Assembly: GCA_041653675.1 (NCBI GenBank) | Contig: JBAZEY010000006.1 | Span: 837-64,836, forward strand | Direction: 5' to 3' | Source: Patescibacteria group bacterium | GTDB taxonomy: Bacteria; Patescibacteriota; Patescibacteriia; XYB2-FULL-38-15 | DNA length: 64,000 bases | Shown here: positions 4,995-57,900 of the stretch, piece by piece | Layout of the letters: each line of letters opens with the position of its first letter | How positions within the stretch are numbered: the first letter of the stretch is position 1 | Position numbers and translations under genes: made by a program | Notes under the pieces: model-generated | What the model was told of the DNA's origin: nothing | Databases searched by the model: none | The model's input: the letters and a program-made list of their open reading frames with translations, nothing else

Positions 4995-5050
4995 TACTAA
5001 ATTTTCGCCTAAAAGAAAAACCCCGACAAAAAGTCAGGATTTTTCTTTGG
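4995..5050. terminator. hairpin plus T-run terminator between the DUF262-HNH gene and pgsA
   Basis: CCCCGACAAAAAGTCAGG hairpin with flanking A/T runs and a GC-rich stem just upstream. Confidence 0.35.
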
Positions 5051-5092
5051 CTCCACGCTCCGAGCAAACTGCCCCGCCGCCTAAAATTATTC

Positions 5093-6262
5093 TTACCGAT
5101 TTCCTTTCGCTCGATTGTGTGTCTTGCACAACATCTGACAGTTTTTGGCTGCTGTTTTGCCACCTTTGCTCCAAGCCGCGACATGGTCGGCATCCATCTC
5201 GTTCAAATTCCAAATCTTTTCCTTGTTGGCATCGTGTCCAACGGCACAAAGCGGGCAGTTTGATTTTTCTTTCTTTTCAGCCGCAGCGGTCTGTGTTGCA
5301 TACACAGTTTTCTTTGTCGCTTCATCAAAAATTCTGACTTCAAGTAATTTCGTATCAGTGGAATCACCAAGAATATACTCAAAAATTCCTCTACGATTTT
5401 TTACATACGGATCCGCATAAAGTTTATGAACTTCCGCCGACACTTTGGCAGGATTATACGCTTTCTTGTGATATGTTTCGTAAAGCCGTCCCCACGGAAG
5501 CCCGCACATTTCGCTTTCTACGTCAGTAAATACGCTAGATACCCAATCAATGACGGTGTTAAAATATTTTTTCAACTCATCAATATTTTTGTCTTTGCGA
5601 TGTTTGCTCATATAATCGCCAATATTGTCTTTGCTTACCCAATCAAGAGCACATTCCAAAAATTCCTGCCGGTTAGCGCTGCCGGATACATACGCGCTCC
5701 ATTTTTGGATATTGGCGTTTTGGCTATTGCTGAATTCCTCTTTACCGAGTGTCACAAATGGTCCGGAATAAACCGCATTGAGCAATTCCTGATTATTAAG
5801 CGGAACACCGGCAATATTTATTGTTTTAAACCATTCTTTTATCTCGCTTTCTTCACCTTTACATTCATAAATAGTTAGTGTTGTATTCAATATTTTAGAT
5901 TGCTTATTTTTTGCAAGACCTGAAAAATATTGCTCCATACCATTTTCGTCTTTGATGGCGAATTTGTCATTCACAAAACGTCCAACGCTAGTGATGCGCT
6001 GTTGCCCGTCCAAAACTTCCAGATTGTTTTCAGATACCTTATTAAAATAAATCAAACCAATCGGATACCCCTTGAGAATCGAATCAATAACAGCAACCTC
6101 TCTTTTTCCACCATCGGAGGCATAGATATAGTTACGCTGATATTCCGGCTGAATAGTGAGCTTGCCGGACAATCCGAATAGTCCCTTGCCTTCAAGTTCG
6201 TTATAGACAAACCCATCGCAAATATCTTTGACAGTAATGTTGATCTTTAAAGCTGTATTCAT
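5093..6262 (-). CDS. DUF262 (ParB/Srx-like, DGQQR motif) N-terminal domain fused to a canonical HNH endonuclease; GmrSD-like type IV restriction candidate
   Basis: N-terminal ...[12 protein letters not shown] is the DUF262 signature. The C-terminus CPLCAVGHD...[12 protein letters not shown]...[15 protein letters not shown] is a CxxC...DH...N...CxxH-N HNH motif. The start overlaps the Dam gene by 4 nt. Confidence 0.75.
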
Positions 6263-7110
6263 ATTGTTATTAAATCAAAATTTATATTTTTAAGTTTAGA
6301 ATCAAAAAACAAAATTTCTTTACCTTTTTTAACACAAAAAGCTGTATAAATTAAATTAAATTCAAAACTATTCTTTACAAATTTATATAAATTTTTGATT
6401 TTTGAAGTATTATCATATGAAACTATCCAGTGAATTGTTTTTATTTTTTTAATTTCTTGCGATACTTTTTCATGATCTTCACTACTGTAAGAATTTTTGT
6501 AAAGACTTGGGCCTTTTAAATAATATGGCGGGTCAAAATAAAAAATAGTTTGCTGATTTTTAGATTCATCTTTAATTTTTTCAATCAGCTCAATGGCGTC
6601 TAAATTGAATAATTGAATTTGCTTTTTAAATTTTGCTATTTCCCTTATTCTTTTAATTAACTCCTGTTTCTTAAAACGACAATCCATTTTATAATTTCCA
6701 TCTTGCTTAATTCCTCCTATCAACCCGCCATCAATAATTCCGGACATGTTAACTCTATTAAGGAAAAAAGTAGAAAAGCCGAGCTGGATTAAGGATGAAT
6801 ATTTTTTTGTTTTTTGAATTGCCTTTGCCTTTCTCCAAGTTTCAACATTTATTTCAACATCTTCAATCATCTTACACAATTTATTTGTATGGTTTAAAAC
6901 AGAATACCAGAAAGCATAAATAGAGCGATCGTAATCATTTATAGTAATACTATCTACTTTTCCTTCTAATAATAAATACAAAGCCACAGATGCGCCGCCA
7001 GCATATGGCTCTACATAATGACTATTAATATTATTATCAACACAAATTTGAGCAATAAATTTTGCCAGCTTATTTTTTCCGCCTGGATATCTTAACGGTG
7101 AGTAGAACAT
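6259..7110 (-). CDS. DNA N6-adenine methyltransferase, Dam/D12 class
   Basis: N-terminal RYPGGK SAM-binding motif ([11 protein letters not shown]) and catalytic DPPY (FYFDPPYY). Confidence 0.85.
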
Positions 7111-7112
7111 AT

Positions 7113-8393
7113 TTATTCTTTTTTAGTTTTAAAATAAGTTTCTAAAATATCTCCCGCAACATATGACATTTTCAACACGTCCTGTTTCGAAACACTTATA
7201 TTGCCGTGAGCATATTTTCCAAGCAGTGCCTCAAACTCAAACCTTTTGTTTAAAAAATCTGAAGTAATACTCAAATAGTTTACAACTTCTTTATCTTTGC
7301 ATTCTTTTTGAAATAATTTAATAAAACTCAAATAGGGATTCTCTTGATTTGCATTATCGGTATCTCCTTGACTTCTGTAATAAATTCTAGAAGCAACATC
7401 CAATATTAACCTCGTAGACATTCCTACAATTAACAAAATATTCTCATCATCCGTTCCTTTTTTATAAACTTTATCAACTGCCAAATACAAATCATTTACT
7501 GGACCCTGTTCTAATTGCAAAACTCTGCCAAAAAGAATATCTTTCTTCTTTGTTGCTGGAGTTTTTTGAGGTTTTATCAATTTTTCAGCTTGTTTTTTAC
7601 TAATTGATATTTCTTCAAAAACACTATTTTCTGGGTTCTTCAGTATTTCATCAATAGATTTATCTTTGTTAATTATTGTTTTTAGTTTTCCTCTGTTATT
7701 TCGAGTAGATATATCACCTTTTTGTAAAGCATCCTGTGTTGCCTCAAAAATTTTAATGAGCTGTCCATCTGAATATTTACTATAAAGTTTGCCTTCCTTC
7801 AGATCTATTCCGATATCTTTAAGATTTTTTTCATTTAAAACCTCTTCTTTCACAAATCTTTTGTTTAAAGTTTTGTTTCCTTTTAAAAAACCCGTTTGAT
7901 CATTAATGGACACAAAAATACTTTTTGGTTTATTTTTAAAATGTAACAAAAAGTAGTCTCTTTCGAGTTCTCCCCACGATCCATTATCAATATGTTTCCT
8001 TTCAATACTCGTAACAGCAGTATTTTCATCACAAACATTACACGGAAGAGTGGTTTGTTCTCTCAATAATTTTGGCTCAAGTTCTCTGAATAACTGCCCC
8101 ACATACTTGGAATACTTACTATCATCTTGTATTATTTTTAGCAAAGCAACTCTTCTGTTTCCATCATAAACTACATACTTATCATCTTTTTTGACGACTA
8201 TGGGTAACTCTGAATAATCGTAATATTCGCCCATTTTTTGTACTAACTTTTTTATATTCCATTTATTATCCGAGTCTTGGATAATACGATCAATGATTTC
8301 TTCATCGATTTTTTTAGCATCAATTGGATCTCTTGGGTTTTCCGTCCAGAGATGTAAATTTTTTATTGGGATGTTTAGAATTTCTTGTTTCAT
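7113..8393 (-). CDS. ParB-like nuclease-domain (ParB-N/sulfiredoxin fold) protein, function unknown
   Basis: N-terminal ...VYDGNRRVALLKI matches the ParB-N GxxR motif. The ~300-aa C-terminal region has no recognisable motif. It is tightly packed between two MTase genes. Confidence 0.6.
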   Translation of the reverse strand: MKQEILNIPIKNLHLWTENPRDPIDAKKIDEEIIDRIIQDSDNKWNIKKLVQKMGEYYDYSELPIVVKKDDKYVVYDGNRRVALLKIIQDDSKYSKYVGQLFRELEPKLLREQTTLPCNVCDENTAVTSIERKHIDNGSWGELERDYFLLHFKNKPKSIFVSINDQTGFLKGNKTLNKRFVKEEVLNEKNLKDIGIDLKEGKLYSKYSDGQLIKIFEATQDALQKGDISTRNNRGKLKTIINKDKSIDEILKNPENSVFEEISISKKQAEKLIKPQKTPATKKKDILFGRVLQLEQGPVNDLYLAVDKVYKKGTDDENILLIVGMSTRLILDVASRIYYRSQGDTDNANQENPYLSFIKLFQKECKDKEVVNYLSITSDFLNKRFEFEALLGKYAHGNISVSKQDVLKMSYVAGDILETYFKTKKE

Positions 8394-8403
8394 AATCTCA
8401 AAA

Positions 8404-9519
8404 TTATTTTTTCTTATGTCTTATAAGTATTCGGGTATAGAGTCTTTCGTTGTTTACATAACCCCTATCTAACTTACCTGTCCATTTAGGATTAACCAAT
8501 TTAGGTAATAAACCCTCTTTGATATTGTAATCACTTCCTAATATCTCAAACTGGTCCGGATTATATTTATCCAGAAAACTGCTCGGCACCCCCATTGCGC
8601 CACTATAATCGCTTGGGATGGAATCAGTAAACGGCACCTCTATAGCATTGTAATTGTCATATTTATCATATGTTTTTTTACCTTTAATTTCTTTGTGTTT
8701 GCTGTATTTCAAATTTTCTTCCATTGTCATAAGCGGCAATGGTTGGTGACGACGTCCGTGGTCAAGATTTGTCAACCAAACGGCAGGCACATTTTTCATA
8801 TTGACACCATCAATCACCTTATCGACATCACCATCATCCATCGTTACGAACCATAATCCGCCAGACCATCCTGTTTTTCCTGACCACATTTTATTGGCTT
8901 TAATCAACGGAAAAATTTCCTTGGATGTTACGTTATTTTTATTGCCAATAATCACAAACTTTTTATTATAATCAAAAAGTTGTTTAACATATACGAGAAA
9001 CAAACTGAACGGCGGATTTGTTACCACAATGTCGGATTGTTTAAGTAGATTTATACATTCATCACTGCGAAAATCGCCGTCGCCGTCTAGTGGCGCCCAT
9101 TCGTTTTGTTTGTTTGCTTTTAACTGCTTGGCAATATCCTTTAAGTTGAATTCGCCATCGCCATCTATGTCATGCACTTCGTTAATAATAAATTTGTTAG
9201 CGGTTACTTTCGGACGGCCTTTTGATTTCGTGAGAGTTTTGTCATCGCCATACAATGGTAGTTCCAAATTGGCAACGGGCGAGGGTTTGTAGCTCGTAGT
9301 GATAAGCCGTTTCAATCCAATCTTGTTAAAATTGAGCACGAAATAGCGAAAGAAATTACTCTCGAACGGATCGTCGCAGTTGCAATATACTACTTTGCCG
9401 CGAAAGACATCGGGATTAAAATCTAGATACGCCTGAATTTCTTTTTGAATATCGCCATACTGAGTATAAAACTCATCATTTTTCGCTCTTTTTGCGTTTG
9501 TAAGATTTTTGTTTGCCAT
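8404..9519 (-). CDS. adenine-specific DNA methyltransferase, EcoRI-methylase family
   Basis: N-terminal NDEFYTQYGDIQKEI...VYCNCDDPFESNF and catalytic NPPF (VVTNPPFSLF). It carries an insert with two DxDGDG loops. Confidence 0.75.
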   Translation of the reverse strand: MANKNLTNAKRAKNDEFYTQYGDIQKEIQAYLDFNPDVFRGKVVYCNCDDPFESNFFRYFVLNFNKIGLKRLITTSYKPSPVANLELPLYGDDKTLTKSKGRPKVTANKFIINEVHDIDGDGEFNLKDIAKQLKANKQNEWAPLDGDGDFRSDECINLLKQSDIVVTNPPFSLFLVYVKQLFDYNKKFVIIGNKNNVTSKEIFPLIKANKMWSGKTGWSGGLWFVTMDDGDVDKVIDGVNMKNVPAVWLTNLDHGRRHQPLPLMTMEENLKYSKHKEIKGKKTYDKYDNYNAIEVPFTDSIPSDYSGAMGVPSSFLDKYNPDQFEILGSDYNIKEGLLPKLVNPKWTGKLDRGYVNNERLYTRILIRHKKK

Positions 9520-9687
9520 ATTTTATTTCAATAAATCGTCGAGCGAAACGCCGAGCGCATTGACGATTTTGTGAGACGTTTGATTAAATGCATCTTCCCT
9601 TAATTTTCCCGCAAAAGAGACGAATTGTCAATTTACTCTACATTCCGTCTTTTTGAAACAAGGTCGCTATGTTATAATTGAAATGAT

Positions 9688-9900
9688 ATGAAATTAACCA
9701 ATGACAGCTATACAATTTTAATTGGCACCAAAAATTTCACTGAACGTTATTATCGCGACAAAGAGGGATGGGTGAAGATATCAGCACGCGGTAAAATCTT
9801 CCGTATGACTGCCGAACAAGTTTTAAACCATCTCTTACCAGCACTATCTGGAATTAAACCAAACCTCACAACAAAAGTGACCCACAATAAAGGAGAGTAG
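9688..9900 (+). CDS. hypothetical small protein (70 aa), divergent from the MTase operon
   Basis: Preceded by TTGAAA-N14-TGtTATAAT. There is no recognisable domain. Confidence 0.3.
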   Translation: MKLTNDSYTILIGTKNFTERYYRDKEGWVKISARGKIFRMTAEQVLNHLLPALSGIKPNLTTKVTHNKGE

Positions 9901-9959
9901 AATCTATCACCCCATAAACACAAAAACAAAATACCCAACTTGCGTTGGATATTTTGTTT

Positions 9960-9982
9960 TGGCTCGGGAGGTGGGATTCGAA
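9960..9982 (-). repeat. direct repeat of the tRNA-Asn 3' end (23 nt, identical), att-like
   Basis: tggctcgggaggtgggattcgaa is identical to 10086-10108. It lies 103 bp from the intact tRNA in the same orientation. Confidence 0.8.
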
Positions 9983-10085
9983 GGCTCCTCGGTGCGGATT
10001 CTGCCGCAACGACCTGGCGGAGTGTGGGTTCTTTCCGAACCCCAAACAAAATAAAAAACCCAACGCAAGGTTGGGTTCTTTATTT

Positions 10086-10160
10086 TGGCTCGGGAGGTGG
10101 GATTCGAACCCACGACCAACGCGTTAACAGCGCGCTGCTCTACCACTGAGCTACCCCCGA
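10086..10160 (-). tRNA. tRNA-Asn (GTT)
   Basis: Reverse complement folds as a cloverleaf. The 7-bp acceptor stem has one G.U pair, the D-arm is GCTC/GAGC, the anticodon stem is GCGCG/CGCGT with loop CTGTTAA, the T-arm is GTGGG-TTCGAAT-CCCAC, and the 3' end is GCCA. Confidence 0.9.
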
Positions 10161-10202: not shown

Positions 10203-11435
10203 TCAATAATCCCTTAATTTTTCAATACCCTTGAACCCTTGCACTTTTTCCAAAGCTTTTGCTTCAATTTGCCGAATGCGTTCGCGGGTTACGCCAAATT
10301 CCTCGCCAACTTCTTCCAAAGTATGCGAAACGCCGTCGGAAAGGCCAAAACGCATTTCCAAAATTTTCTGTTCGCGAGGCAGGAGGTCCTTAATTGCTTC
10401 TTTAACATATTCCCGCAAAAGCTGCAATGCCGCCGCGCGATCCGGAGAAACGTTTTTGAAATCTTCTATAAAATCTTCGAGCACGCTATCTTCATCTTCA
10501 TCGCCGACCGAAGTATCAAGCGAAACCGTGTCTTGGGAAATCTGAATTAAATTTCTAATTTTTTCCACATCCTCGCCCATCTCCGAAGCAATCTCTTCGG
10601 GCAAGGGTTCGCGCCCCAAATCCTGAATCAATTGCCTCGCCACTTGCTGATAACGGTTAATAGTTTCCACCATATGCACCGGAATTCTGATAGTGCGAGA
10701 TTGATCCGCAAGGGCACGCGTCACGGCCTGACGAATCCACCAAGTTGCGTAAGTTGAAAATTTATATCCTTTACTCGGATCAAATTTTTCCACGGCGCGC
10801 ATCAAACCAATATTCCCCTCTTGAATCAAATCTGCCAAAGATAAATTTTTTCCCACGAATTTTTTTGCAATAGAAACAACAAGGCGCAAATTGGCAACCA
10901 TTAATCTCTGCGACGCTTCCTGGTCTCCCTGATCCTTGCGGCGGGCCAAAGCCATTTCTTCTTCAGTCGTTAAAAGCGGCACTTTTCCGATTTCACGAAG
11001 ATACATCTGAATGGAATCGGTAGAAATATCGCCCAAGTCCAATCGCTTCTTTTCTTTACTGACGCCAATATCGGCCAAAAGTTTTTTTCTCTCTTCAGTG
11101 CGCCCCAAAATATCAGATTTAACTTCCACCACAGAAATTCCGGCCTCATCAATTTTATCTAAAAATTCTTCGTATTTTTTTATGTAATTTTCCAAATCGG
11201 CGAAAGTGAAAAGGATTTCCGAATCAGTCAAAAAACCTCTCATGCGGCCCTTGTCCAAGAGAGTTTTTATCGTTTCATCGCTTGGCGGAAGAATTTTTGG
11301 TGCGACGACTCTGGCGACTTTTTTCGCCTTAATTTTCTTTCCACCTCGTTTGGCTATCTTTTTCTTCCCGCCCGATTTTTTAATTTTTTTCACGCCGCCC
11401 TTCTTCTTCGGCCGACGCACTTTTTTAGTTTTCAT
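10203..11435 (-). CDS. rpoD: RNA polymerase sigma-70 factor RpoD
   Basis: Regions 2-4 are present ([34 protein letters not shown] region 4.2). The N-terminal 40 aa are Lys-rich. Confidence 0.9.
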
Positions 11436-11522
11436 CTATTTAAAATGGTCAAAATTTTAATCAAATCGTTAGCCGCCAAAAACAAATTACAAAACTCCCC
11501 TCCCCGCTTTATTTTTCTGCTA

Positions 11523-13322
11523 TTAAATATTTATCAACTTATTAAATTCTTCAGCCAGTTCTTTTATCCGACCGAGTTCTTTATTCTCTTCAGCTTTTTT
11601 CATCTCGGTTTGCAGCCGCCTTTGTTCATTTTTGATATAGCCTTCGCGTAAGGACTTAGCATTCTGTAAAATTTCATTTCCGATTTCTTCCTCACTAAAT
11701 TCGGCAAAATCTTTTTCCGCCAAAAGAAACAAACTCGCGATGTATTTTTTTTCATTCGGATCGTCTGAAACACCCAACATAACACTCTCCAAATCCGTTT
11801 TATCCACAGACTTATTATAATACAAAATCAGGTTTTTGTAAATTTCCCCCGACAAGCGATCCGGAAACATAAACGGCTCAAGATACGGGATAGCCAAAGA
11901 GAATTGGTTGGGATATTTAAAAACTAAAGCAATGAATCTTTCCGCGATAAGTGAGGGACGATTTTTTACCGCAGTGGCGACATTTTTTTTATCAGATACA
12001 GCCGGACCGGCCGCGATTTTTTCATGGGGCAGAGATTCCCGCAAAACCTGCTCGGGCACTCCCAAAATATTTCCCAACTTTTCCAGATAAAAATTTTGCT
12101 CAACTTTATCGGGAATTTTTATTAATTCCGCAAGCAATGTTTTCGCCGCCTTCTTTTTATCTTCAACTTTTCGTAAATCAAGCCCGTTCAGAGTTTTTTT
12201 AATATAATAATCCATGAAGGCCATGGAATTCGCAATCGCGTCGCGCCAAAGAGCCGGATCTTTTTTAATATAGTCATCCGGATCTTTTCCAATTTCGGGC
12301 GTTAGCATTATAACTTTGATGTTAATTCCCTCTTTTAAGGCAACATCGATTCCGCGCATCGCCGCCGTATTGCCGGCAAGATCCGCGTCAAAAGAAATCG
12401 CTAAATTCGGCGAATATCTTTTTAATAAATTCACTTGCTCAATGGTCATTGCCGTGCCGGACGATGCCACAACGTTTTGCACGCCAGCCTGATGCGAAGC
12501 AATAACATCCATATTCCCCTCAACCATCACCGCCAAATTTTCTTTTTTAATTTCCTGTTTGGCAAAATCCAAACCATAAATCACGCGGCTCTTGTCATAC
12601 ACCAAAGTCTGGGGTGTGTTCACATATTTTCCACCAGCATTTTCTTTTTTCTCCGCCTCGGGCATTAAGCGCGCCGTAAACCCGATAACGTGGCCGTGAA
12701 TATCACGAATAGGAAACATTATTCTCCCTCGAAAACGATCATAAAATCCCGAACCGCGTTCTTTTTTTACAGAAAGCCCTGCCAAAAAAATATCATTTTC
12801 CGTAAACCCCTTGCCACGCAAAAAATTTATGGCGCTATCCCAGGAATTCGGCGCGAAGCCAAGAAAAAATTTCTCTACCGTTTCCTCGGTCAGCGCCCGT
12901 TTCCCAAAAAGATAATTTCTCGCCCCTTCGGCTTCGGGTATTTTTAATAAATTGTAATGATAAAATCTTGCCGCCGCTTCCAAAATATCAAGCAATTTTG
13001 TTTTTTGATTACTCAAACTTTTATCTTCGTAGCGAAGTGTCACACCAGCCCGCTTCGCCAAAATTTTTAAAGCCTCGGGAAATTCAATATTTTCAATTTT
13101 CTGGACAAAACTTATTACGTCACCGCCCTCACCGCAGCCAAAACAATGCCAAATCTGCTTATCCTTGGAAACCATAAAAGAAGGCGTCTTCTCGTTATGA
13201 AACGGACAAAGACCCTTCCAATTACCACCCGCCTGCTTCATGTTGGACACGTATTCACCAATAACTTCAACAATGTCCAGGCGGTTTTTAATTTCCTCAA
13301 CTTGCGAATCGGGCATAAACAA
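11523..13322 (-). CDS. dnaG: DNA primase DnaG
   Basis: Zinc ribbon CPFHNEKTPSF...HCFGCG and a TOPRIM domain (MVEGNMDVIA). It forms the classic dnaG-rpoD arrangement. Confidence 0.9.
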   Translation of the reverse strand: MFMPDSQVEEIKNRLDIVEVIGEYVSNMKQAGGNWKGLCPFHNEKTPSFMVSKDKQIWHCFGCGEGGDVISFVQKIENIEFPEALKILAKRAGVTLRYEDKSLSNQKTKLLDILEAAARFYHYNLLKIPEAEGARNYLFGKRALTEETVEKFFLGFAPNSWDSAINFLRGKGFTENDIFLAGLSVKKERGSGFYDRFRGRIMFPIRDIHGHVIGFTARLMPEAEKKENAGGKYVNTPQTLVYDKSRVIYGLDFAKQEIKKENLAVMVEGNMDVIASHQAGVQNVVASSGTAMTIEQVNLLKRYSPNLAISFDADLAGNTAAMRGIDVALKEGINIKVIMLTPEIGKDPDDYIKKDPALWRDAIANSMAFMDYYIKKTLNGLDLRKVEDKKKAAKTLLAELIKIPDKVEQNFYLEKLGNILGVPEQVLRESLPHEKIAAGPAVSDKKNVATAVKNRPSLIAERFIALVFKYPNQFSLAIPYLEPFMFPDRLSGEIYKNLILYYNKSVDKTDLESVMLGVSDDPNEKKYIASLFLLAEKDFAEFSEEEIGNEILQNAKSLREGYIKNEQRRLQTEMKKAEENKELGRIKELAEEFNKLINI

Positions 13323-13331
13323 TCTATGCTG

Positions 13332-14396
13332 TTAATTTATTTCTATTTCTCTGCCACAATAAGGGCATTTAAATGGCGACCTATAATTATAACAAGTAGT
13401 TGCATACGTTACTCTTGATGAATAAAAACGATTAAGAGAATCCTTATTATATCCATATTCAGAAAGTTCTTTTTCTATATTTTTACCACAAAATGGACAA
13501 AATTTTCTTTCCGCTTCTATTACATTTGAAATACGGAACGTCCCGAAATCATTGTTTAATGAAGAAGAAAATGGCAAATTGATGCCCGATGAAACAGACG
13601 CTAAAGCGGGCGGCTCTATGCCACAATTAATTGTTCTATAAGTTCTATCAAATTTTTTCTTTTGTTCTTCTGTATAATTTTCCTTAAATTCCTTATCCAG
13701 CATATCAAGCGGGTTTTTGTACCCACTTATTTTTATATTTTCAACATTAGTCTTTTTTATAGATGTTTTTACTCCCTCATTTAATAATTTTTTTCCACAA
13801 TCTTCAAAATAATCTTTATCATCTACGCATAAAATACATTTTTGTTTCTTATCAATTTTGCTATCTTCCAAAAATTTTAAAAAAGATTCAAATGCAATAC
13901 AATCGAGGTCTTTCACATAAGCCGTTTTTCTGGGGTTCTCCGTCCATGGTGGTTCCTTTAACGAAGATCTCACCATGCCCCGAATTAAGATATCACCAGT
14001 TAATGGAATCTTTTTTGTATTTTTATGACTCATAATCCGCTTAATAATATCCTCGTTGGATCGCTCAATGTCTTCTACGGATTTTACGTTGTCTTTTATG
14101 CTTTTCGTAATTTTTTCATGTATTTTTTTGAACTGGTCTTTCTCCTTTGAAGACCCAAAAATTTTAGATGAATCTATGCAATTAATATTATCCTTTATTT
14201 CTTTAAATATTTTTTTATGTTCATCGAATATTTCTTTTTCAATTACTTCTGGAACAACAAGAACCATCTTACCGCTATCAACCTTATTTTCAATTTTTTT
14301 CAAAACATCTATATCTAAATCATCTATCTGTTCCAAGGCACAACTAATAAAAATATTTGTATCAATAAAGACTATTTGGGGTAGATTTCTTCTCAT
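13332..14396 (-). CDS. PIN-like domain protein with C-terminal zinc ribbon, function unknown
   Basis: N-terminus IVFIDTNIFISCAL resembles the first PIN acidic motif. The C-terminus has CPFCG...(x18)...CPYCG. Confidence 0.5.
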   Translation of the reverse strand: MRRNLPQIVFIDTNIFISCALEQIDDLDIDVLKKIENKVDSGKMVLVVPEVIEKEIFDEHKKIFKEIKDNINCIDSSKIFGSSKEKDQFKKIHEKITKSIKDNVKSVEDIERSNEDIIKRIMSHKNTKKIPLTGDILIRGMVRSSLKEPPWTENPRKTAYVKDLDCIAFESFLKFLEDSKIDKKQKCILCVDDKDYFEDCGKKLLNEGVKTSIKKTNVENIKISGYKNPLDMLDKEFKENYTEEQKKKFDRTYRTINCGIEPPALASVSSGINLPFSSSLNNDFGTFRISNVIEAERKFCPFCGKNIEKELSEYGYNKDSLNRFYSSRVTYATTCYNYRSPFKCPYCGREIEIN

Positions 14397-14421
14397 AGAA
14401 TTCGCTTTTAATAGCTAAAAA

Positions 14422-14430
14422 TGATATAAT
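14422..14430 (+). promoter_or_regulatory. extended -10 (TGaTATAAT) for the glucan phosphorylase gene
   Basis: TGATATAAT lies 55 nt upstream of the ATG at 14485. Confidence 0.3.
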
Positions 14431-14484
14431 ATTTAAATTCATTTGCTCTAATATTGTAGTTTAAATTTCATTTTTAGTAAAGGT

Positions 14485-16176
14485 ATGGCTGATAAAAAAA
14501 TTCCTGAGTTAAAAAACCTGACGAACGAACCGAAAATCGCTTATTTTACGATGGAAATCGGGCTTCGCGAAGAAATTCCAACTTATAGCGGAGGTTTAGG
14601 AATTTTGGCCGGAGATGCAACAAAATCCGCGGCAGATTTGGAGATTCCTTTTATCGCCGTCACGCTTTTAAATCACAAAGGATATTTTACGCAAGAATTG
14701 ACGCGCAATGGCCAACAAATTGAACATCCGGTAAAATGGAATCCAAAAAAATATTTAAAACCATTGCCTTTCACAACCGAGGTGCATATTCACAGGCGGC
14801 GGGTCGTAATTAAACCCTGGCTTTATACCATCCGGGGCGCCAGCGGAGCAAAGGTTCATGTTTTGTTTTTGGACACCGATCTTAAAGAAAATATTTTGAA
14901 AGACAGAAAAATTTCTTATTTTCTCTACGGGGGCGACGCGAAATATCGGCTGAAACAGGAAATTGTTTTGGGTGTAGGCGGCGCGCGCATTTTAAAAATC
15001 CTCGGCGTTGATGTCAAAAAATATCACATGAACGAAGGCCATGCCGCGTTTTTAACTTTGGAACTTTTGCGGATGAATAATTTTAATCTGGAAGAAACGC
15101 GAAAAAAATGTGTCTTCACAACCCATACGCCAGTAGCTGCCGGGCATGATCATTTTGATTACGCGCTCGCGGAAGAACAAATGGAAGCGCTTGTCGCGCC
15201 GGAGCTTCTCCAAAAACTTTGCGGCAAAGAAAATTTAAACATGACTCGCCTCGCCTTTAACATGAGCCATTACGTAAACGGCGTGGCCAAGCGGCATAAA
15301 GAAATCTCTGAAAAAATGTTTCCAGGATACGAAATTCACGCTATTACAAACGGCGTTCATTCTTACACCTGGACTCATCCGGCTTTTCGCAGACTTTATG
15401 ATAAATATCTGGCGGGATGGGAATCTGAGCCAGAACTCTTTATTCGCGCCCCGATAATTCCCAATGAAGAAATCTGGGCGTCGCGCAATAAGGCAAAAAA
15501 AGATTTGATTGATTACGTAAATCGTTTGACTGGCGTCGGCATGAAAAAAGATGTTTTAACTATTGGTTTTGCCCGTCGCGCTACGGCTTATAAACGCCAT
15601 AATTTTATTTTCAGAGATTTGGAACGCCTTGAAGAAATTGCTAAAAAATTTCCTTTGCAAATAATTTTTGCCGGCAAAGCTCATCCGCGCGATCTTGGCG
15701 GAAAAAAAATAATTAAAGAAGTTTTCCAAAATATCAGAAAACTTAAGGGAAAAATCAAAATAGTTTATCTTGCGAACTACAACATTGAAATGGCGAAAAA
15801 AATAACTTCCGGTGTTGACGTTTGGCTGAATAATCCCGAACGGCCGATGGAAGCCTCGGGAACTTCGGGAATGAAAGCGGCACATAACGGCGTCGTGAAT
15901 TTTTCTGTTTTAGACGGCTGGTGGCTTGAGGGGTTTGTGGAGGGCGTGACCGGCTGGGCAATCGGACCAAAGCCTGACGAAAAAATAAGCCCAGCGGCGG
16001 CGGAAAAAAGAGAATTGGATGATTTATACAATAAACTTGAATATACAATTTTACCGATGTATTATGAACGCCGCGATGAATGGATGACAATGGTGGAAAA
16101 TTCTATCAGCAAATTAGCTTATTATTTTAATACTCACCGCATGATGCGACGATATGTCCTTTATGCGTATCTATAA
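14485..16176 (+). CDS. glgP: alpha-glucan (glycogen/maltodextrin) phosphorylase, GT35
   Basis: PLP-site motif EASGTSGMKAAHNG and an archaeal/short-type N-terminal domain. Confidence 0.8.
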   Translation: MADKKIPELKNLTNEPKIAYFTMEIGLREEIPTYSGGLGILAGDATKSAADLEIPFIAVTLLNHKGYFTQELTRNGQQIEHPVKWNPKKYLKPLPFTTEVHIHRRRVVIKPWLYTIRGASGAKVHVLFLDTDLKENILKDRKISYFLYGGDAKYRLKQEIVLGVGGARILKILGVDVKKYHMNEGHAAFLTLELLRMNNFNLEETRKKCVFTTHTPVAAGHDHFDYALAEEQMEALVAPELLQKLCGKENLNMTRLAFNMSHYVNGVAKRHKEISEKMFPGYEIHAITNGVHSYTWTHPAFRRLYDKYLAGWESEPELFIRAPIIPNEEIWASRNKAKKDLIDYVNRLTGVGMKKDVLTIGFARRATAYKRHNFIFRDLERLEEIAKKFPLQIIFAGKAHPRDLGGKKIIKEVFQNIRKLKGKIKIVYLANYNIEMAKKITSGVDVWLNNPERPMEASGTSGMKAAHNGVVNFSVLDGWWLEGFVEGVTGWAIGPKPDEKISPAAAEKRELDDLYNKLEYTILPMYYERRDEWMTMVENSISKLAYYFNTHRMMRRYVLYAYL

Positions 16177-16178
16177 AT

Positions 16179-16886
16179 ATGCGACAAGAAGAATTACAAG
16201 AAATTAAAAAAAATCCGGCGTTAATCGCCAAATATATTGACCATACCGAAGTCAGCCCGAATTCCACTGCCGCCGACATTAAAAAACTTTGCGCCGAAGC
16301 GAAAAAATACGGATTTTATTTGGCTATGGTTTTGCCTTATTACGCGCCGCTCGCGAAAAAATTATTGCGCGGCACAAAAATAAAAATCGGTGTGGTAATG
16401 GGTTTTCCTTTTGGCGCGCAATGTACCGAGGCGAAACTCGCGGAAATGAAAAAGGCATTTCCTTTTGCTGATGAATTTGATTTTGTTATAAACCGCCAAG
16501 CCTTGAAAAATAAAGATTATGGATTTATTCTGAAAGAGCTAAAAACTTTGGCCCGGGCGAAACGCGGAAAAATTATGAAAGTTATCATTGAATCACCGGA
16601 ACTCACGAACACAGAAATTTATAAAGCCTCACAGTTAATTTTGGCCTCCGGCGCCGATTTTGTAAAAACCGCAGTGGGTTTACGCGGCGGCGCGAAAATT
16701 TCCGACGTTAAAATAATGAAAAAAGTTGTGGGTGATAAAATAAAAATTAAAGCTTCCGGCGGAATTAAAAATTTCAAAACCGCTCTCGCGTTTCTCGCCG
16801 CCGGAGCCTCGCGGCTAGGAACTTCGCACGGCGTGGAAATCGTCAAAGGCGGATCGAGCAGTAAGAAAAGTTATTTTCACGAATGA
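16179..16886 (+). CDS. deoC: deoxyribose-phosphate aldolase-like class I aldolase
   Basis: GADFVKTAVG...IKASGGI matches DeoC Schiff-base lysine context. Confidence 0.65.
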   Translation: MRQEELQEIKKNPALIAKYIDHTEVSPNSTAADIKKLCAEAKKYGFYLAMVLPYYAPLAKKLLRGTKIKIGVVMGFPFGAQCTEAKLAEMKKAFPFADEFDFVINRQALKNKDYGFILKELKTLARAKRGKIMKVIIESPELTNTEIYKASQLILASGADFVKTAVGLRGGAKISDVKIMKKVVGDKIKIKASGGIKNFKTALAFLAAGASRLGTSHGVEIVKGGSSSKKSYFHE

Positions 16887-17521
16887 AAACATTAACTATA
16901 AAAATAAATCCACGGAATCCGGAAAAAGAAAAAATAGAAATAGCCGCCCAAATTTTAAAAGAGGGCGGTTTAGTTGTTTTTCCCACGGATACGGTTTACG
17001 GCCTAGCCGCTGATGCAAAAAATCCGCGGGCGGTTAAAAAAATATTTAAAGTCAAAAAAAGGCCGCTCTCTAATCCCCTGCCCATTTTAATCGCGAGAAA
17101 AACTGATCTCAGAAAATACACGAAAGAGACATCAGCGAAAATAAAAAGATTAACTGATAAGTTCTGGCCAGGTCCATTGACGCTTATCTTACTAAAGAAA
17201 AAAAATATTTCAAATATTGTGACTGCCGGCCTTCCCCGCGTAGGTGTGCGCGTACCAGATAATGCCGTGGCCCTCGCATTAATCCAGGCATTCGGCCGAC
17301 CGCTCGCCACGACCTCCGCAAACATCGCAGGTAAACCGAGCCCGGCCACCTCACGCGGCGTCAAAAAATATCTGAATAATAAAATAGATTTGATCCTGGA
17401 CGGTGGAAAAACCAAACTCGGCCAAGAATCCACTGTTTTAGATTGTAGCGCTTCGCCGCCAACTTTTCTCCGCTCCGGCGCGATTCCGACAAAAAAACTG
17501 AAAAAACTTATTTCAAATTAA
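16883..17521 (+). CDS. tsaC: L-threonylcarbamoyladenylate synthase (YrdC/Sua5 family)
   Basis: GGLVVFPTDTVYGLAADA...NPLPILIA is the YrdC signature. Confidence 0.85.
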   Translation: MKTLTIKINPRNPEKEKIEIAAQILKEGGLVVFPTDTVYGLAADAKNPRAVKKIFKVKKRPLSNPLPILIARKTDLRKYTKETSAKIKRLTDKFWPGPLTLILLKKKNISNIVTAGLPRVGVRVPDNAVALALIQAFGRPLATTSANIAGKPSPATSRGVKKYLNNKIDLILDGGKTKLGQESTVLDCSASPPTFLRSGAIPTKKLKKLISN

Positions 17522-17524
17522 AAC

Positions 17525-17553
17525 GGGGTTGCAAGAAAGATTCTTACAACCCC
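17525..17553. terminator. bidirectional hairpin shared by convergent tsaC and the GC-island gene
   Basis: GGGGTTGCAAGAAAGATTCTTACAACCCC forms a 7+5-bp stem. Confidence 0.55.
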
Positions 17554-17561
17554 AGACGACC

Positions 17562-17885
17562 TCAATCCCATGGGCCTCCTTTCAGCATATCCTCGGTGCG
17601 GCCGCAGCAAGAGCAACGAGCAAGATACCAGTTCACGACGTGTTCTTTCTGCCGTCCGCAGATCTTGCATACATGTGTTACCACTTCCTGCATCCGCTGC
17701 ATCGCCCTCCCGCAGCATCGAGTGAGCGTGTAGTTCTTCTTGAGTCCCCAAAGTCTTGGGGCGGGCTCAATCCGTTTCTCGCCGATCTGCTCCCAGTCCG
17801 GCTCATGTCCCACACACTTGCTGTGAACGCACGAACCGTTGTGGACATGCAGCTCGCAAGGAACTCCCTGGTTGGCATTGGCCAT
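17562..17885 (-). CDS. Cys-rich hypothetical protein (107 aa; CxxxC, CCGR, CKICGR, CSCCGR motifs) in GC-rich island a
   Basis: Strong SD AAAGGAGGG lies 7 nt before the ATG. GC content is far above that of neighbouring genes. Confidence 0.55.
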   Translation of the reverse strand: MANANQGVPCELHVHNGSCVHSKCVGHEPDWEQIGEKRIEPAPRLWGLKKNYTLTRCCGRAMQRMQEVVTHVCKICGRQKEHVVNWYLARCSCCGRTEDMLKGGPWD

Positions 17886-17929
17886 CGCAATCCCTCCTTT
17901 TCGCCTCCCATTTTTGGGTGCTGATTAAT

Positions 17930-17958
17930 AGTGTATACAAAAATCATAAAAAGTCAAG
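17930..17958 (-). promoter_or_regulatory. putative sigma70 promoter (TTGACT -35) for the Cys-rich gene
   Basis: TTGACT lies 60 nt upstream of the start. The -10 is ambiguous (TATACA or TACACT). Confidence 0.3.
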
Positions 17959-18009
17959 CCCACAGCGGAATAACAAAAAACGGACCGAATGGCCCGTTTT
18001 ATATACAAC

Positions 18010-18038
18010 CTTGACAAAATCCTTCAAACTAAATAACA
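18010..18038 (+). promoter_or_regulatory. sigma70 promoter TTGACA-N17-TAACAT for the RHH gene
   Basis: Consensus -35 with 17-nt spacing, followed by SD GAAGGAGG and a GTG start. Confidence 0.45.
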
Positions 18039-18060
18039 TAGCTTTAGAAGGAGGAATAAC

Positions 18061-18315
18061 GTGGCGAAATCACGGAAACCATCAGTCGAACTGAAGAACC
18101 ACATCATCTCTGTGCGCATACTGGGCTCCCATCTGGAGGCGCTGGAAGCCCTGGCCAGAGTCGACGACACAACGTTGGGAGAGCAAATCCGAAAAGCGCT
18201 CAACCGATACGTGGCGAAACGCATCCGCAACAAAAACTTCCAGAAACAACTCCTGGCCTACAAGAGAAGGATGAAGGCACTCCTCAACGTGCTGAGGAAG
18301 AAACCCGGCGACTAG
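18061..18315 (+). CDS. ribbon-helix-helix (CopG/Arc-like) DNA-binding protein, GTG start
   Basis: N-terminal KNHIISVRILGSHLEALEALARV fits a beta-strand plus helix RHH pattern. It sits in GC-rich island a. Confidence 0.5.
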   Translation: MAKSRKPSVELKNHIISVRILGSHLEALEALARVDDTTLGEQIRKALNRYVAKRIRNKNFQKQLLAYKRRMKALLNVLRKKPGD

Positions 18316-18347
18316 GAGGTCGCCGCCGCCATATTCAACCGGGTTTG

Positions 18348-18375
18348 CCAGTTTACCAAAAACTGGCGTTTTTTT
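18348..18375. terminator. intrinsic terminator (CCAGTTTACCAAAAACTGG + T7)
   Basis: Hairpin followed by TTTTTTT. It serves the RHH gene and the convergent membrane-protein gene. Confidence 0.55.
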
Positions 18376-18688
18376 ATTTCACCAAAAGATTGATTACAAA
18401 CGCCACCAAAAGAATCACAAATAAATTCGCTACGGTAAAAAGAAGCATTTTCACGGCTTCTTTTTTAGCGTTATCAAACCAAAGATAAACCGGCCGGCCA
18501 AAAACTAAAAGTCCGCAGACGAGGGCGGAAAAAACGAAGAGCAAGAGAAACGTGACCGGTCCCCAATAATTTTCCATTTGACCAAAAATTTTTTCGCCGT
18601 TCGTCATGACCAAAACCACAAGCATTACGTAAGCGAAAACTCCGACCGCGTTCGCCGCGGACCACAACCAAATTTTCTGATTTTTCAT
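18374..18688 (-). CDS. hypothetical membrane protein (3 TM)
   Basis: Hydrophobic 104-aa ORF in the host-GC range. Confidence 0.4.
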   Translation of the reverse strand: MKNQKIWLWSAANAVGVFAYVMLVVLVMTNGEKIFGQMENYWGPVTFLLLFVFSALVCGLLVFGRPVYLWFDNAKKEAVKMLLFTVANLFVILLVAFVINLLVK

Positions 18689-18702
18689 AGATTTTTTAAT
18701 TA

Positions 18703-19983
18703 TTATTCTTTTTTAAGAGCGACAATTGGTTCAAGGCGCGCCGCGGCGCGGGCTGGGTAAATTCCGGAAATCAAACCAACCAAAACGGAAATGCCGACCG
18801 CGAGCAAAATATATTGTGGTGAAAGATGAAATTTCCAGGCGAAACCTAAAGAATTCGCGACGACACCCACTAAAAAAGAAATGATCGTGCCCAAAATAGT
18901 TCCGGCTAAACCGCCCAAAAAAGTTATCCCGACGGCCTCCATCAAAAATTGATTTAAAATATCATTGCGCTTCGCGCCGATGGCTTTACGCAACCCAATT
19001 TCAAAAGTCCGCTCGGCCACGGCCACGTACATTACATTCATAATTCCTACGCCGCCGACTACAAGTGAAATACTGGCCAAGGCAAAAAGTAAAATTTTAA
19101 TCGCGCCAGTGACCGTACCAAGCAAGGCCAATCCTTCCGCAGCAGACATCACGGCAAAATCGTCTTTCGTGGGATCATCTATATCATGCAATTCGCGCAT
19201 CCGCACGGTAACATCGTCGACGGTCACATCGGTGAGAGCAGTATCCTTAATTTGAATAAAAATAAATTGGATATAATCTACGCCCAAAATTAATTTCTGC
19301 ATCGTACGCAAGGGCATGATGGCAATGTCATCAAAAGAAAAAACTCCGGCGCTCCCCCGCTCTTTCATTACGCCAACAACTCGATAACTTTGTTTTCCAA
19401 TTTTTATTTTTTTCCCAATGGCATCTTCGTCACCAAATAATCGATTTTTTAAATTACTGCCTAAAACCACAATTCGCGCTAAACTTTTATCTTCCGCGTC
19501 GGTGAAAAAACGGCCGTCCTCCACTTCCCCTGAATCTATCTCGTCGAATGACGACGTAACGCCAAAAATCAAAGTCACTTTATTTTCTTCTTTATAAGAA
19601 AAAACCGCCTGGCCAGTTTGGCCGGAATAAACATCACTGACATTAGCAATTTTTCTCAATTCATCCGCGTCTTTTTCTTTTAAGGTAGTAATCGTAACGC
19701 CCTGAGCCATACTCGCCGCGTTTTCGCTTGAAACATGCTCCGTTGAAGGAACCTTCACTTCAACTTCAATATAGTCTGTTCCAAACATTGTCACCTGGCC
19801 GACGATAAAATCTTCAATGGCTCGTCCAGCTGAAAGTACAACAATCACGGCGGTAATCCCGACTGTAATACCCAAAACCGTTAAAATAGTTCTGAGCTTA
19901 TGCCGTATAAGCGCGTCAAGGGCAATATTGATTGGTGTTTTTAAAAAAGATAAATTCATTTTACTCGTAGCGCAAGGCTTCAA
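18703..19983 (-). CDS. ABC transporter permease, MacB/FtsX family
   Basis: MacB-like periplasmic core domain and C-terminal FtsX 4-TM domain. Confidence 0.8.
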   Translation of the reverse strand: MKPCATSKMNLSFLKTPINIALDALIRHKLRTILTVLGITVGITAVIVVLSAGRAIEDFIVGQVTMFGTDYIEVEVKVPSTEHVSSENAASMAQGVTITTLKEKDADELRKIANVSDVYSGQTGQAVFSYKEENKVTLIFGVTSSFDEIDSGEVEDGRFFTDAEDKSLARIVVLGSNLKNRLFGDEDAIGKKIKIGKQSYRVVGVMKERGSAGVFSFDDIAIMPLRTMQKLILGVDYIQFIFIQIKDTALTDVTVDDVTVRMRELHDIDDPTKDDFAVMSAAEGLALLGTVTGAIKILLFALASISLVVGGVGIMNVMYVAVAERTFEIGLRKAIGAKRNDILNQFLMEAVGITFLGGLAGTILGTIISFLVGVVANSLGFAWKFHLSPQYILLAVGISVLVGLISGIYPARAAARLEPIVALKKE

Positions 19984-25219: not shown

Positions 25220-25308
25220 AAAAACAAGTTAAATTTTAACTTTATTATATCTTATCATAAATTAGCATAAATAAAAATAACGCCAAAATGGCGCGTAATT
25301 TAAACAAA

Positions 25309-25326
25309 CGGAGAGGGCGAGATTCG
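25309..25326 (-). repeat. degenerate copy of the tRNA-Ser 3' end
   Basis: cggagagggCgaGattcg compared with the tRNA's cggagagggAggGattcg (25427-25444), in the same orientation. Confidence 0.6.
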
Positions 25327-25426
25327 GGCTCCTCGGTGCAAAGTCGGCCGCAACGGGCTAGCGGTGTGAGTTCTCATCAAAACCCTCAATTTTTCAAATC
25401 TGCCACAAAAGGCAAATTTGAGAAAA

Positions 25427-25511
25427 CGGAGAGGGAGGGATTCGAACCCTCGATACCTTGCGGTATGCACGCTTTCCAAGCGTGTGCACTAGGCCACTAT
25501 GCGACCTCTCC
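25427..25511 (-). tRNA. tRNA-Ser (GGA)
   Basis: Class II tRNA with acceptor GGAGAGG/CCTCTCC and anticodon stem CACGC/GCGTG with loop TTGGAAA. The long variable arm is ATACC-GCAA-GGTAT and the T-arm is GAGGG-TTCGAAT-CCCTC. CCA is not encoded. Confidence 0.85.
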
Positions 25512-25550
25512 ATTTTTTAAATTCTATACTAAACTGATCTAAAAATCAAA

Positions 25551-56371: not shown

Positions 56372-56545
56372 AATAACAGATGCCCTCGAAAGAAGGCGGA
56401 ACACATTTTTTAGGTGGGTTCCGCTAAGCTCGTATTTTTTCTTGCTGTCACCTTGCGGTGATTTAGGAAAATTTACGAGCCACCGTCCGAAGGACTCGGA
56501 CGATTTCCGGCATACTTTTGGAAGCCGGCTTATTTTGGAAGGTGC
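56372..56545 (-). repeat. leader repeat copy 3 (distal ~175 bp, near-identical)
   Basis: Matches 57727-57900 and 59469-59640 almost base for base. Confidence 0.85.
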
Positions 56546-56547
56546 TA

Positions 56548-57627
56548 CTACGGGCAGTCCTCGTCGACCAGTCCGTCGCAGTTGTCGTCGAGGCCGTTGC
56601 CACACGTGTCGATGGAACCCGGAATGGACCAGATGGTTCCGGGTGGCGACGAATCGCAGGCCAGCTGGAACATCTCACCAGGCGCGTTGCAGGTGATGAC
56701 GCCGAACTCGGTGCAAAGACCTTCGTCGGAGAAGATGACGCAGGTACGACCGAGATCCTCTCGGTAGTCCTCGTCCGTTTCCCCATCGCAGTCGTTGTCG
56801 ATCTCGTCGCAGAGTTCCTGGGCGTCCGGATTGATAGCCGCGTCGCTATCGTCGCAGTCTTCCGCATTGGTAACGTACCCAGGAGGCATATCCTCGGTTG
56901 GACAGTGTGACGAGGTAGCGGTGGGGGTGTCGAATCCGAAGCCGTCGCCGTCTCGATCAAAGTAGATCGGAAAGCGATCGATGGCATCCGCGTCCGTCTC
57001 GCCGTCGCAGTCGTTGTCGAGGCCGTCGCAGATCTCGCCAACGCCGGGATGGACAGCCGGATTGTGATCGTCGCAGTCGTAGTACTCACCCGGCGAAGAA
57101 CCACAGAGCTGATGACCATCGACGTCATCATCACGTCCGACAAGCAAACAGTGATTCATCACACAACGGGAGATGATGCACTCACTGTCGCGAAAACCGC
57201 AGTCATCGGAAGTGACACACTCTGGCGGCGCGCAGGCGGGATCATCGGACGGAACGTGGCGACAGATGCCGCCAACCTCGCAGAGGTCGACCGTGCAGTC
57301 GTCGCCGTCGTCGCAGTCCGCACTCGTCTCACATTCGGTAGTCGGGAGACACACGCACATGTCGCCGGAACAAACGCCGGTTGACATGCCTTCTGCCTGG
57401 CACTCGAAAACGCAATCGGTCGGCACGCAGTCGGACGGCGGCTCGCAGGCCGGATTGTCGGAGGGAACCATGACGCAGGTGCGGTCAATGCCGCAGATGT
57501 CCACCGTGCAGGGGTCGCCGTCGGCGCAGTCCGCGTCCGAAACGCACTCCTGACTCAGATCGAGGAACGTGTTGTTGCAACCGATCGCGAACAGAACCAC
57601 GGACAGAACCATCAACGTATTCTTCAT
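56548..57627 (-). CDS. secreted Cys/Asp-rich lipoprotein with MopE/TSP3-like DxDxDGxxDC metal(Ca)-binding repeats
   Basis: Start reassigned to MKNTLMVLSVVLFAIGC (SD AAGGAAGGAAAG). It has repeats CDGLDNDCDGETD, CDEIDNDCDGETDED, CGNGLDDNCDGLVDEDC and ~14% Cys. The ORF-track N-terminus (MFRLLSRV...) is the upstream leader read in frame. Confidence 0.65.
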   Translation of the reverse strand: MKNTLMVLSVVLFAIGCNNTFLDLSQECVSDADCADGDPCTVDICGIDRTCVMVPSDNPACEPPSDCVPTDCVFECQAEGMSTGVCSGDMCVCLPTTECETSADCDDGDDCTVDLCEVGGICRHVPSDDPACAPPECVTSDDCGFRDSECIISRCVMNHCLLVGRDDDVDGHQLCGSSPGEYYDCDDHNPAVHPGVGEICDGLDNDCDGETDADAIDRFPIYFDRDGDGFGFDTPTATSSHCPTEDMPPGYVTNAEDCDDSDAAINPDAQELCDEIDNDCDGETDEDYREDLGRTCVIFSDEGLCTEFGVITCNAPGEMFQLACDSSPPGTIWSIPGSIDTCGNGLDDNCDGLVDEDCP

Positions 57628-57900
57628 CTTCTTCTCTCTTTCCTTCCTTGTTGTAAAGAACTTTGTCCCGGACACGCGAAACATCGCGGCCGAGAAACTT
57701 TCCTCTCTTCGAATTTGCCACGCAACGCGTGGTACCCTCGAAAGAAGGCGGAACACATTTTTTAGGTGGGTTCCGCTAAGCTCGTATTTTTTCTTGCTGT
57801 CACCTTGCGGTGATTTAGGAAAATTTACGAGCCACCGTCCGAAGGACTCGGACGATTTCCGGCATACTTTTGGAAGCCGGCTTGTTTTTGGAAGGAACTA
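57565..57900 (-). repeat. leader repeat copy 1 (~335 bp, identical to 59307..59640), comprising the first codons plus 5' UTR/promoter
   Basis: An exact duplicate covering the signal-peptide codons, SD and ~270 bp upstream with several hairpins (TCACC-GCAA-GGTGA, CCACGC-GTT-GCGTGG, TCCGA-GTCCT-TCGGA). Confidence 0.85.

Follow-up and report, generated by a model that had tools for sequence, protein, structure and literature searches.

What is the short GC-rich segment that stands between a tRNA gene and a second copy of that gene's own 3′ end? In the window, i.e., the whole 64-kb stretch of Patescibacteria DNA analysed here, this arrangement follows tRNA-Ser(GGA) and is found again after tRNA-Asn(GTT). 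A preliminary description had drawn attention to both sites, and its account of one module fused in each case to a copy of the tRNA's own 3′ end is correct in coordinates, sequences, and architecture. The tRNA-Ser locus (25280–25512) comprises the following elements:

25426–25512, minus strand: tRNA-Ser(GGA), found by ARAGORN and by Rfam (tRNA, 56 bits); read as the integration target
25395–25420, minus strand: long A/U-rich hairpin adjoining tRNA-Ser, from sequence and fold; left part of the putative inserted unit
25327–25387, minus strand: A-type module (nhmmer E=1.8e-17 against the family profile)
25309–25326, minus strand: putatively displaced copy of tRNA-Ser from the T-loop to the discriminator, CGAATCTCGCCCTCTCCG, attR-like (sequence match)
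25280–25294, minus strand: intrinsic terminator-like hairpin with T-run, 3′ of the Ser copy (terminator prediction)

The tRNA-Asn locus, together with the defence island adjoining it (5021–10160), comprises:

10086–10160, minus strand: tRNA-Asn(GTT) with encoded CCA, the second target in the window (ARAGORN; Rfam)
10057–10077, minus strand: terminator hairpin after tRNA-Asn, left part of the putative inserted unit (sequence; terminator prediction)
9983–10043, minus strand: A-type module (sequence, shared pattern, family profile)
9960–9982, minus strand: copy of tRNA-Asn from the T-loop to CCA, exact at 23/23 positions (sequence match)
9923–9960, minus strand: terminator after the Asn copy (terminator prediction)
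5093–9900, minus strand: restriction-modification (R-M)/defence island of low GC (0.295 at 6–8 kb), distal to the Asn unit (Pfam; GC)
5021–5054, minus strand: older remnant of the tRNA-Asn 3′ end, GGAGCCA, followed by a terminator of its own, at the close of the island array

At both tRNAs, the order is tRNA, hairpin, module, 3′-end copy, and terminator. Each module is about 60 nt long and GC-rich, and the two are ~80% identical over a 49-column core; that at tRNA-Ser opens with a 5′ hairpin, GGGTTTTGATGAGAACTC, which leads into the core, CACACCGCTAGCCCGTTGCGGCCGACTTTGCACCGAGGAGCC. In the window, there are exactly two occurrences of the pattern GTTGCGGC-N4-T-N2-GCACCGAGGAGCC, where shuffles lead one to expect 0.00. 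Since the hairpin at 25395–25420 has no T-run, it is not an obvious terminator, and it was not called as one. The terminators flanking the Asn module (9923–10077) are near reverse complements of each other (AACCCAACCTTGCGTTGGGTT versus ATCCAACGCAAGTTGGGTA) and form a long inverted repeat around the Asn unit, to which Rfam returned weak miRNA-precursor-like hits, far below threshold. Elsewhere in the window, the stretch from 56463 to 59508 has a GC content of 0.56–0.60, compared with ~0.41 for the window, and carries overlapping ORFs on both strands, those on the minus strand encoding MopE-type Cys-rich metal-binding repeats.

The two copies on which the preliminary description was based have now become more than 15 units in related genomes, at three tRNAs (Asn, Ser, and Trp). 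A scan of 185,579 species genomes for the exact motif gave 41 chance hits, in high-GC genomes, and a single real one in an 886-kb MAG (locus L030), where the module lies 3′ of tRNA-Trp and is followed by a copy of the T-loop and T-stem of that tRNA. Scanning of metagenomes added two further real loci, namely L043, where a 20-nt copy is found at tRNA-Trp, and L044, orthologous to the tRNA-Ser locus of the window. L030, L043, and L044 were all retrieved by an exact match, and so the invariance of the box CGTTGCGGC...GCACCGAGGAGCC in them is built in. An unbiased sample was obtained through the RpoD gene that precedes tRNA-Asn, by which 13 distinct rpoD–tRNA-Asn loci were reached. The organism itself is a member of the Patescibacteria (CPR), close to Candidatus Falkowbacteria, and the 13 loci belong to its clade. 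There, the box drifts, to GCACCGAGGCGCC in L059, GCCTCGAGAAGCC in L070, and GCACCGAGGAGCT in L073, and its apparent invariance is thus rejected as an artefact of ascertainment. A subfamily, B, lacks the hairpin and the box altogether, as in GGGGTGATAGATTCGAACCCACCCACCGTTAAGCCATCGGGCGTAGC abutting the copy. Furthermore, when orthologous sites are compared, as in L059 and L068, the module has diverged faster than the hairpin beside it.

The tRNA-Ser loci of the relatives also bear on the copy itself. In the window, CGAATCTCGCCCTCTCCG agrees with the 3′ end of the adjacent tRNA-Ser at 16 of 18 bases, and with tRNA-Ser of L044 at all 18. The T-stem of the window's tRNA-Ser is GAGGG/CCCTC, while that of the relatives L044 and L067 is GCGAG/CTCGC, i.e., two base pairs have changed, on both strands; the CTCGC strand is kept in the window's distal Ser copy, as in L044 and the element-free L067. 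A change of this kind, between loci with inserted modules that are ~93% identical, suggests that the T-stem was replaced by gene conversion and not altered by point mutation.

A further GC-rich segment lies in L030, in an AT-rich tRNA cluster: the spacer of ~110 nt between tRNA-Thr(GGT) and tRNA-Tyr (6372–6483, minus strand), for which there is no Rfam match at the gathering threshold.

Occupied, empty, and stacked sites

Among the 13 rpoD–tRNA-Asn loci, the Asn unit is present in the window and in L059, L068/69, L070, L073, L080–82, L083, L084, and L055, and the site is element-free in L061/62, L066, and L067, the last of which is element-free at tRNA-Ser as well. L057/58 have a different island at the tRNA-Asn site, with no distal copy within 10 kb. 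The units, as is the case for tRNA-integrating elements, pair an intact target tRNA with a displaced 3′ fragment that bounds the insert as a direct repeat, and they are present or absent at one and the same site among relatives.

Which of the two 3′ ends, then, came with the unit? The functional tRNA-Asn of L080 ends in ...CTCGGAG-CCA, followed by the hairpin of the unit, and its distal copy ends in ...CTCGGAG/ttta without CCA, the same as the tRNA in the element-free L066 and L067. Since only the proximal copy of L080 has the CCA, the proximal 3′ end arrived with the unit; judging from these junctions, it belongs to the element, and what was displaced to the distal position is the host tRNA's own end. 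The distal Ser copy of the window, with the ancestral CTCGC beside a tRNA that now differs from it, points the same way. The CCA is carried by the Asn units and is missing from those at Ser and Trp, from which it follows that the repeat is adapted to its tRNA and element-borne. Identity within the repeat always starts in the T-loop (positions 54–56) and stops at the tRNA 3′ end. Williams reportedly described, in 2002, a T-loop class of crossover and attachment sites in tRNA genes, and the T-loop start of the units seen here fits that class. A C55 variant of the T-loop is shared by tRNA and copy in L030, whereas in L043 the copy alone has it, a distribution that points to exchange across the T-loop. 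The L030 tRNA-Trp in question (5845–5916, minus strand) has the T-loop TCCGATT, in which the normally invariant position 55 is a C.

The same repeats allow us to weigh the idea that the units are MITE-like miniature transposons, inserted in the T-loop with a target-site duplication of 18–23 bp. The units are short and gene-less, many of the insertions look independent, and the 5′ end of the module shows an imperfect, inverted-repeat-like complementarity to the T-loop and T-stem of the copy. This complementarity, which involves the module 5′ G-run/TTCG, is inherent in the near-palindromic sequence of the T-arm. The repeats of L080, on the other hand, are not duplicates, as the CCA is only on the proximal one, and this largely refutes a target-site duplication; a repeat that carries CCA at Asn but not at Ser or Trp, and is thus tRNA-adapted and element-borne, argues in the same direction. 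Moreover, long or short, the duplication always stops precisely at the 3′ end of the tRNA. We know of no transposase family that makes 20–23-bp duplications, and an origin by such a transposon seems to us very improbable indeed.

The other end of tRNA-Asn in L080 has an oddity of its own. Immediately upstream of the tRNA (6276–6600) lies a gene for an 82-aa GIY-YIG endonuclease, flanked by a duplication of approximately the first 28 nt of the tRNA-Asn 5′ end, and the upstream 5′-end copy is interrupted by a 30-nt GC-rich insert. The GIY-YIG unit looks like a second, different small element, targeting the other end of tRNA-Asn.

Two different units follow tRNA-Asn in tandem in L073 (B and then A) and in L084 (A and then B). 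L083 and L084, with identical RpoD and flanks that are 99.1–99.4% identical, differ by one 130-nt unit; their terminator hairpins are swapped, and one breakpoint lies at TCGAACCC of the module 5′ hairpin. In addition, the modules at Asn sites hold an internal, decayed copy of tRNA-Asn from the T-loop to the 3′ end (z = 3.0–5.7), for example TTCGAA-CCCACCCACCG[TTA]AGCCA, and in the window the 5′ half of the Asn module is a decayed sequence of this sort, running from the T-arm to the 3′ end (z = 3.6, p = 0.006). As read from the sequences, this shows that older repeats decay in place, and it points to accretion.

We consider it probable, with some reserve, that the module and copy form the attR-type junction of a gene-less cassette of ~100–125 bp integrated at the tRNA T-loop. 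The best-supported history is that of a family which entered tRNA-Asn, tRNA-Ser, and tRNA-Trp in one Patescibacteria clade, and which stacks and decays in place. Such a cassette would have three parts. The first would be its own version of the tRNA sequence between T-loop and 3′ end, by which the functional tRNA would now be completed; a hairpin or terminator would come next and, last, a right-arm module of ~45–65 nt. The host's original 3′ segment would have been displaced to the far side, where it would survive as the “copy”. The resulting geometry would be that of the attL and attR of conservative site-specific integration into tRNA genes, and the combination of a restored target and a displaced fragment has a precedent in tRNA islands (PMC4383910). 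The crossover would take place in or next to the T-loop, by a recombinase presumably supplied in trans. For T-loop crossovers, the classical enzyme is a tyrosine recombinase. The cassettes may be non-autonomous miniature elements or, alternatively, strongly reduced remnants of larger islands, and homologous exchange between repeats may have shuffled them further. The distal copies could offer extra landing sites, with cargo islands beyond them, such as the R-M island of the window. The earlier suggestion that a small mobile element captures or targets the 3′ ends of tRNAs agrees with units at three tRNAs, their varying presence, and the tandem stacks.

Tests of an RNA role

A quite different possibility is that the segment acts as RNA in the 3′ trailer of the tRNA, be it as a mimic or decoy of the tRNA 3′ half, as a processing signal, or as a scaffold whose 3′ guide is directed at the tRNA gene. 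At tRNA-Ser, a predicted promoter lies ahead of the tRNA, and no terminator is met before the one that follows the copy; co-transcription of the module with the tRNA is therefore probable. At the Asn loci, however, a strong terminator precedes the module. The module is GC-rich inside an AT-rich spacer, and its layout resembles that of a scaffold followed by a 3′ guide, as in the TnpB omega-RNA and the Cas12 crRNA; against this, a search of the window and of the annotated flanks of the related loci found no TnpB, IscB, Cas, or CAST effector domain.

Between the 5′ G-run of the module and the C-rich strand of the copy, base pairing is possible, and RNAalifold proposed this pairing as a closing helix from six A-type members; from 11 members, however, it predicted 0 pairs and no consensus structure. 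Single-sequence folds of module plus copy are not more stable than shuffles (z = -0.3 and +0.3). In the A core, two alternative, mutually exclusive helices keep 92–97% pairing, and the changes from G-C to G-U fit only the tRNA-sense strand. Yet the pairing survives solely because one pyrimidine replaces another opposite G; the two candidate helices have 0 compensatory double changes, and column shuffles score identically. A conserved RNA hairpin, UGCGG-N6-YYGCA, finds no support on these grounds, the mutually exclusive alternative helix being its equal. Nor do the box, which drifts in L059, L070, and L073, the B subfamily, with neither hairpin nor box, or a module that outpaces its flanking hairpin in divergence speak for a trailer RNA. 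Rfam, at the gathering threshold and at E<=10, recognised the tRNAs only and left the module unmatched, and ARAGORN found no second tRNA in the unit. On balance, we regard a functional trailer RNA as quite improbable.

The preliminary description had also thought of a processed element and of a gene for a tRNA-like minihelix RNA. With no Rfam hit, consensus structure, or compensatory changes, and no significant similarity to tRNA bodies, neither is borne out. It had held that a lack of further copies and of covariation, or else a relic status of both units within classical genomic islands, would speak against its view. Further copies do exist; covariation, on the other hand, is absent, and the context is one of island integration.

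Other candidates were examined and set aside. To the eye, the B module resembled tRNA-Asn, as a decayed tandem duplicate of the tRNA would, but global alignment of modules to tRNA 5′ bodies gave z<2; the only significant tRNA-derived sequence in the modules is the decayed 3′-end copy, and this only at Asn sites. The absence of CCA from the copies at Ser and Trp led us to reject a retro-derived copy, from tRNA-primed cDNA. For a hammerhead or other ribozyme, a tmRNA fragment, an integron attC, or IS200/IS605-type ends, we found no conserved core and no Rfam hit.

Islands and recombinases at the tRNA loci

Returning to the integrated cassette, what lies beyond its distal copy? In the window, the R-M island (5093–9900) is bounded on one side by the distal copy of the Asn unit and on the other by the remnant GGAGCCA with its terminator (5021–5054), which directly precedes a CDP-alcohol phosphatidyltransferase gene. 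By Pfam, the island encodes an EcoRI-like N6-adenine methyltransferase, a D12-class methyltransferase, and a GmrSD-N/HNH protein; it also has a 426-aa ORF, with no Pfam family match, that is possibly the cognate endonuclease of the island. L059 and L066 have no such R-M island, and the CDP-alcohol phosphatidyltransferase gene comes directly after their tRNA-Asn locus.

In L055, an 8.3-kb island (11327–19538) extends from the tRNA-Asn 3′ end up to a GGAGCCA-plus-terminator remnant, and a B-type unit follows this remnant. The island encodes a 569-aa large serine recombinase, the ORF of which runs into the tRNA, a 441-aa reverse transcriptase (RVT_1), and SpoVG-like and DUF5659 genes. The junction ...aattc/GGAGCCA, as at 5021–5054 in the window, recurs in L055 (19540) and L068 (12081). 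L068 has two junctions of GGAGCCA plus terminator, and the type is present in L059 as well. Variable genes also lie beyond the distal copy at tRNA-Ser in L044, over 1.1 kb, and at tRNA-Trp in L043; the L044 segment includes what we take, from an ORF read by eye, to be a cold-shock gene, which is absent in the window. The tRNA-Asn locus is an accretion hot spot, and the arrays with remnants that it contains match published descriptions in which serial integration pushes older elements outward and leaves partial tRNAs behind (bioRxiv 10.1101/2020.12.28.424599; PMC3146451; PMC9897764). Among the alternatives offered in the preliminary description, that of an integrase arm-site remnant or island relic comes closest to the evidence, given the displaced host end in L080 and the position of the units at the head of island arrays with tRNA 3′ remnants.

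It may be argued that the units are no more than passive scars, each left by the independent deletion of a large island, never mobile and without function, their similarity reflecting common island ancestry and homologous exchange. The internal decayed repeats would agree with this, as would the further remnants and islands at the tRNA-Asn locus, the streamlined nature of CPR genomes, and the quick evolution of the module. However, over 15 units, spread across three tRNAs, keep the architecture of hairpin, module, and copy. The stacks bring two distinct units together without island genes in between, a single unit is the difference between strains whose flanks are 99% identical, and no island with a module at its far end was seen. 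Scars of this kind are, in our opinion, an unlikely explanation.

If the units were integrated as cassettes, where is the recombinase? The unit, of ~100 nt, contains no ORF and hence no integrase gene, and a recombinase domain was found in none of the window's ORFs of >=150 aa. A full-length parent element with the module was absent from genome, metagenome, and viral scans by exact motif, the three viral scans giving chance hits or nothing, and from phage and plasmid BLAST, which gave nothing; the searches for parent and recombinase covered exact motifs and about 0.4 Mb of sequence from relatives. At the tRNA-Asn locus, a single recombinase was seen, the large serine recombinase of L055. It is unsupported as the agent, as its junctions are at GGAGCCA and not in the T-loop. 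We have, accordingly, att-flanked units with no integrase, and one recombinase-bearing element at the same tRNA that uses another join.

These results count against the cassette, and so do some others. A circle of ~125 bp is a physically awkward substrate for recombination. The GAGCC beside the T-loop copy is not an inverted repeat of the T-stem, unlike a classical core site. Homologous modules at three tRNAs call for repeated retargeting, and the differences in arrays between strains could come from homologous exchange rather than from site-specific recombination.

It is tempting to go further and to propose an active family of gene-less mini-integrative elements, a counterpart of MITEs in the world of integrases, composed of a tRNA 3′ end, a terminator, and an arm of ~50 nt. 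These would be mobilised in trans by a putative T-loop-specific recombinase of Patescibacteria, would retarget themselves by capturing new 3′ ends, and would seed landing pads for defence and cargo islands. To this extension we attach a modest probability only. If the cassettes do move as units, they would rank as the smallest integrative elements on record, and they would indicate that some recombinase recognises the conserved T-loop, which would interest both mobile-element biology and the discovery of integrase tools. In any case, a recurring odd feature beside the tRNA genes of streamlined CPR genomes finds an explanation, and it marks the head of variable island arrays. It can thus be used for delimiting horizontally acquired DNA in MAGs and for avoiding the mis-annotation of tRNA fragments.

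Comparison with known systems

In the RNA-guided systems, a scaffold is followed by a 3′ guide, as in the TnpB omega-RNA, the Cas12 crRNA, and the homing guides of CAST. The units are similar in that their conserved segment precedes ~20 nt that are identical to a genomic target close by, the tRNA 3′ end. They differ in having no effector gene, Rfam match, or conserved fold, and the “guide” is here the displaced end of the host tRNA.

CIMEs are cis-mobilizable elements flanked by att sites and without an integrase of their own; they measure several kilobases and derive from identifiable ICEs at the same site. Like them, the units are flanked by att-type repeats, have no recombination genes, and could be mobilised in trans and accreted in tandem. 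Unlike them, the units are miniature, and our searches found no parent element.

In geometry, the units resemble the islands in tRNA and tmRNA genes, and the prophages, mapped by Islander (PMC4383910). There too, an element-borne 3′ segment restores the tRNA and the displaced 3′ end makes up a direct repeat; the identical stretch begins at the T-loop and reaches the 3′ end, and presence varies among relatives. In contrast to those islands, the units are only ~100 bp long, encode neither an integrase nor any other gene, and have a conserved right-arm module common to three tRNA targets.

As regards the arrays, the parallels are the tycheposons of Prochlorococcus (bioRxiv 10.1101/2020.12.28.424599) and the ssrA-specific islands of Dehalococcoides (PMC3146451), likewise cases of serial integration at one tRNA or tmRNA gene in streamlined genomes. 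In both, older elements are pushed outward, partial tRNA repeats and degraded remnants accumulate, and serine or tyrosine recombinases are involved (bioRxiv 10.1101/2020.12.28.424599; PMC3146451). Those elements, however, are kilobases long, with a recombinase and cargo genes, whereas the units described here are gene-less and miniature. Integrative elements that target tRNA genes, and the relics of such elements, are well known; what is unusual here is the miniature, gene-less, and repeatedly stacked form.
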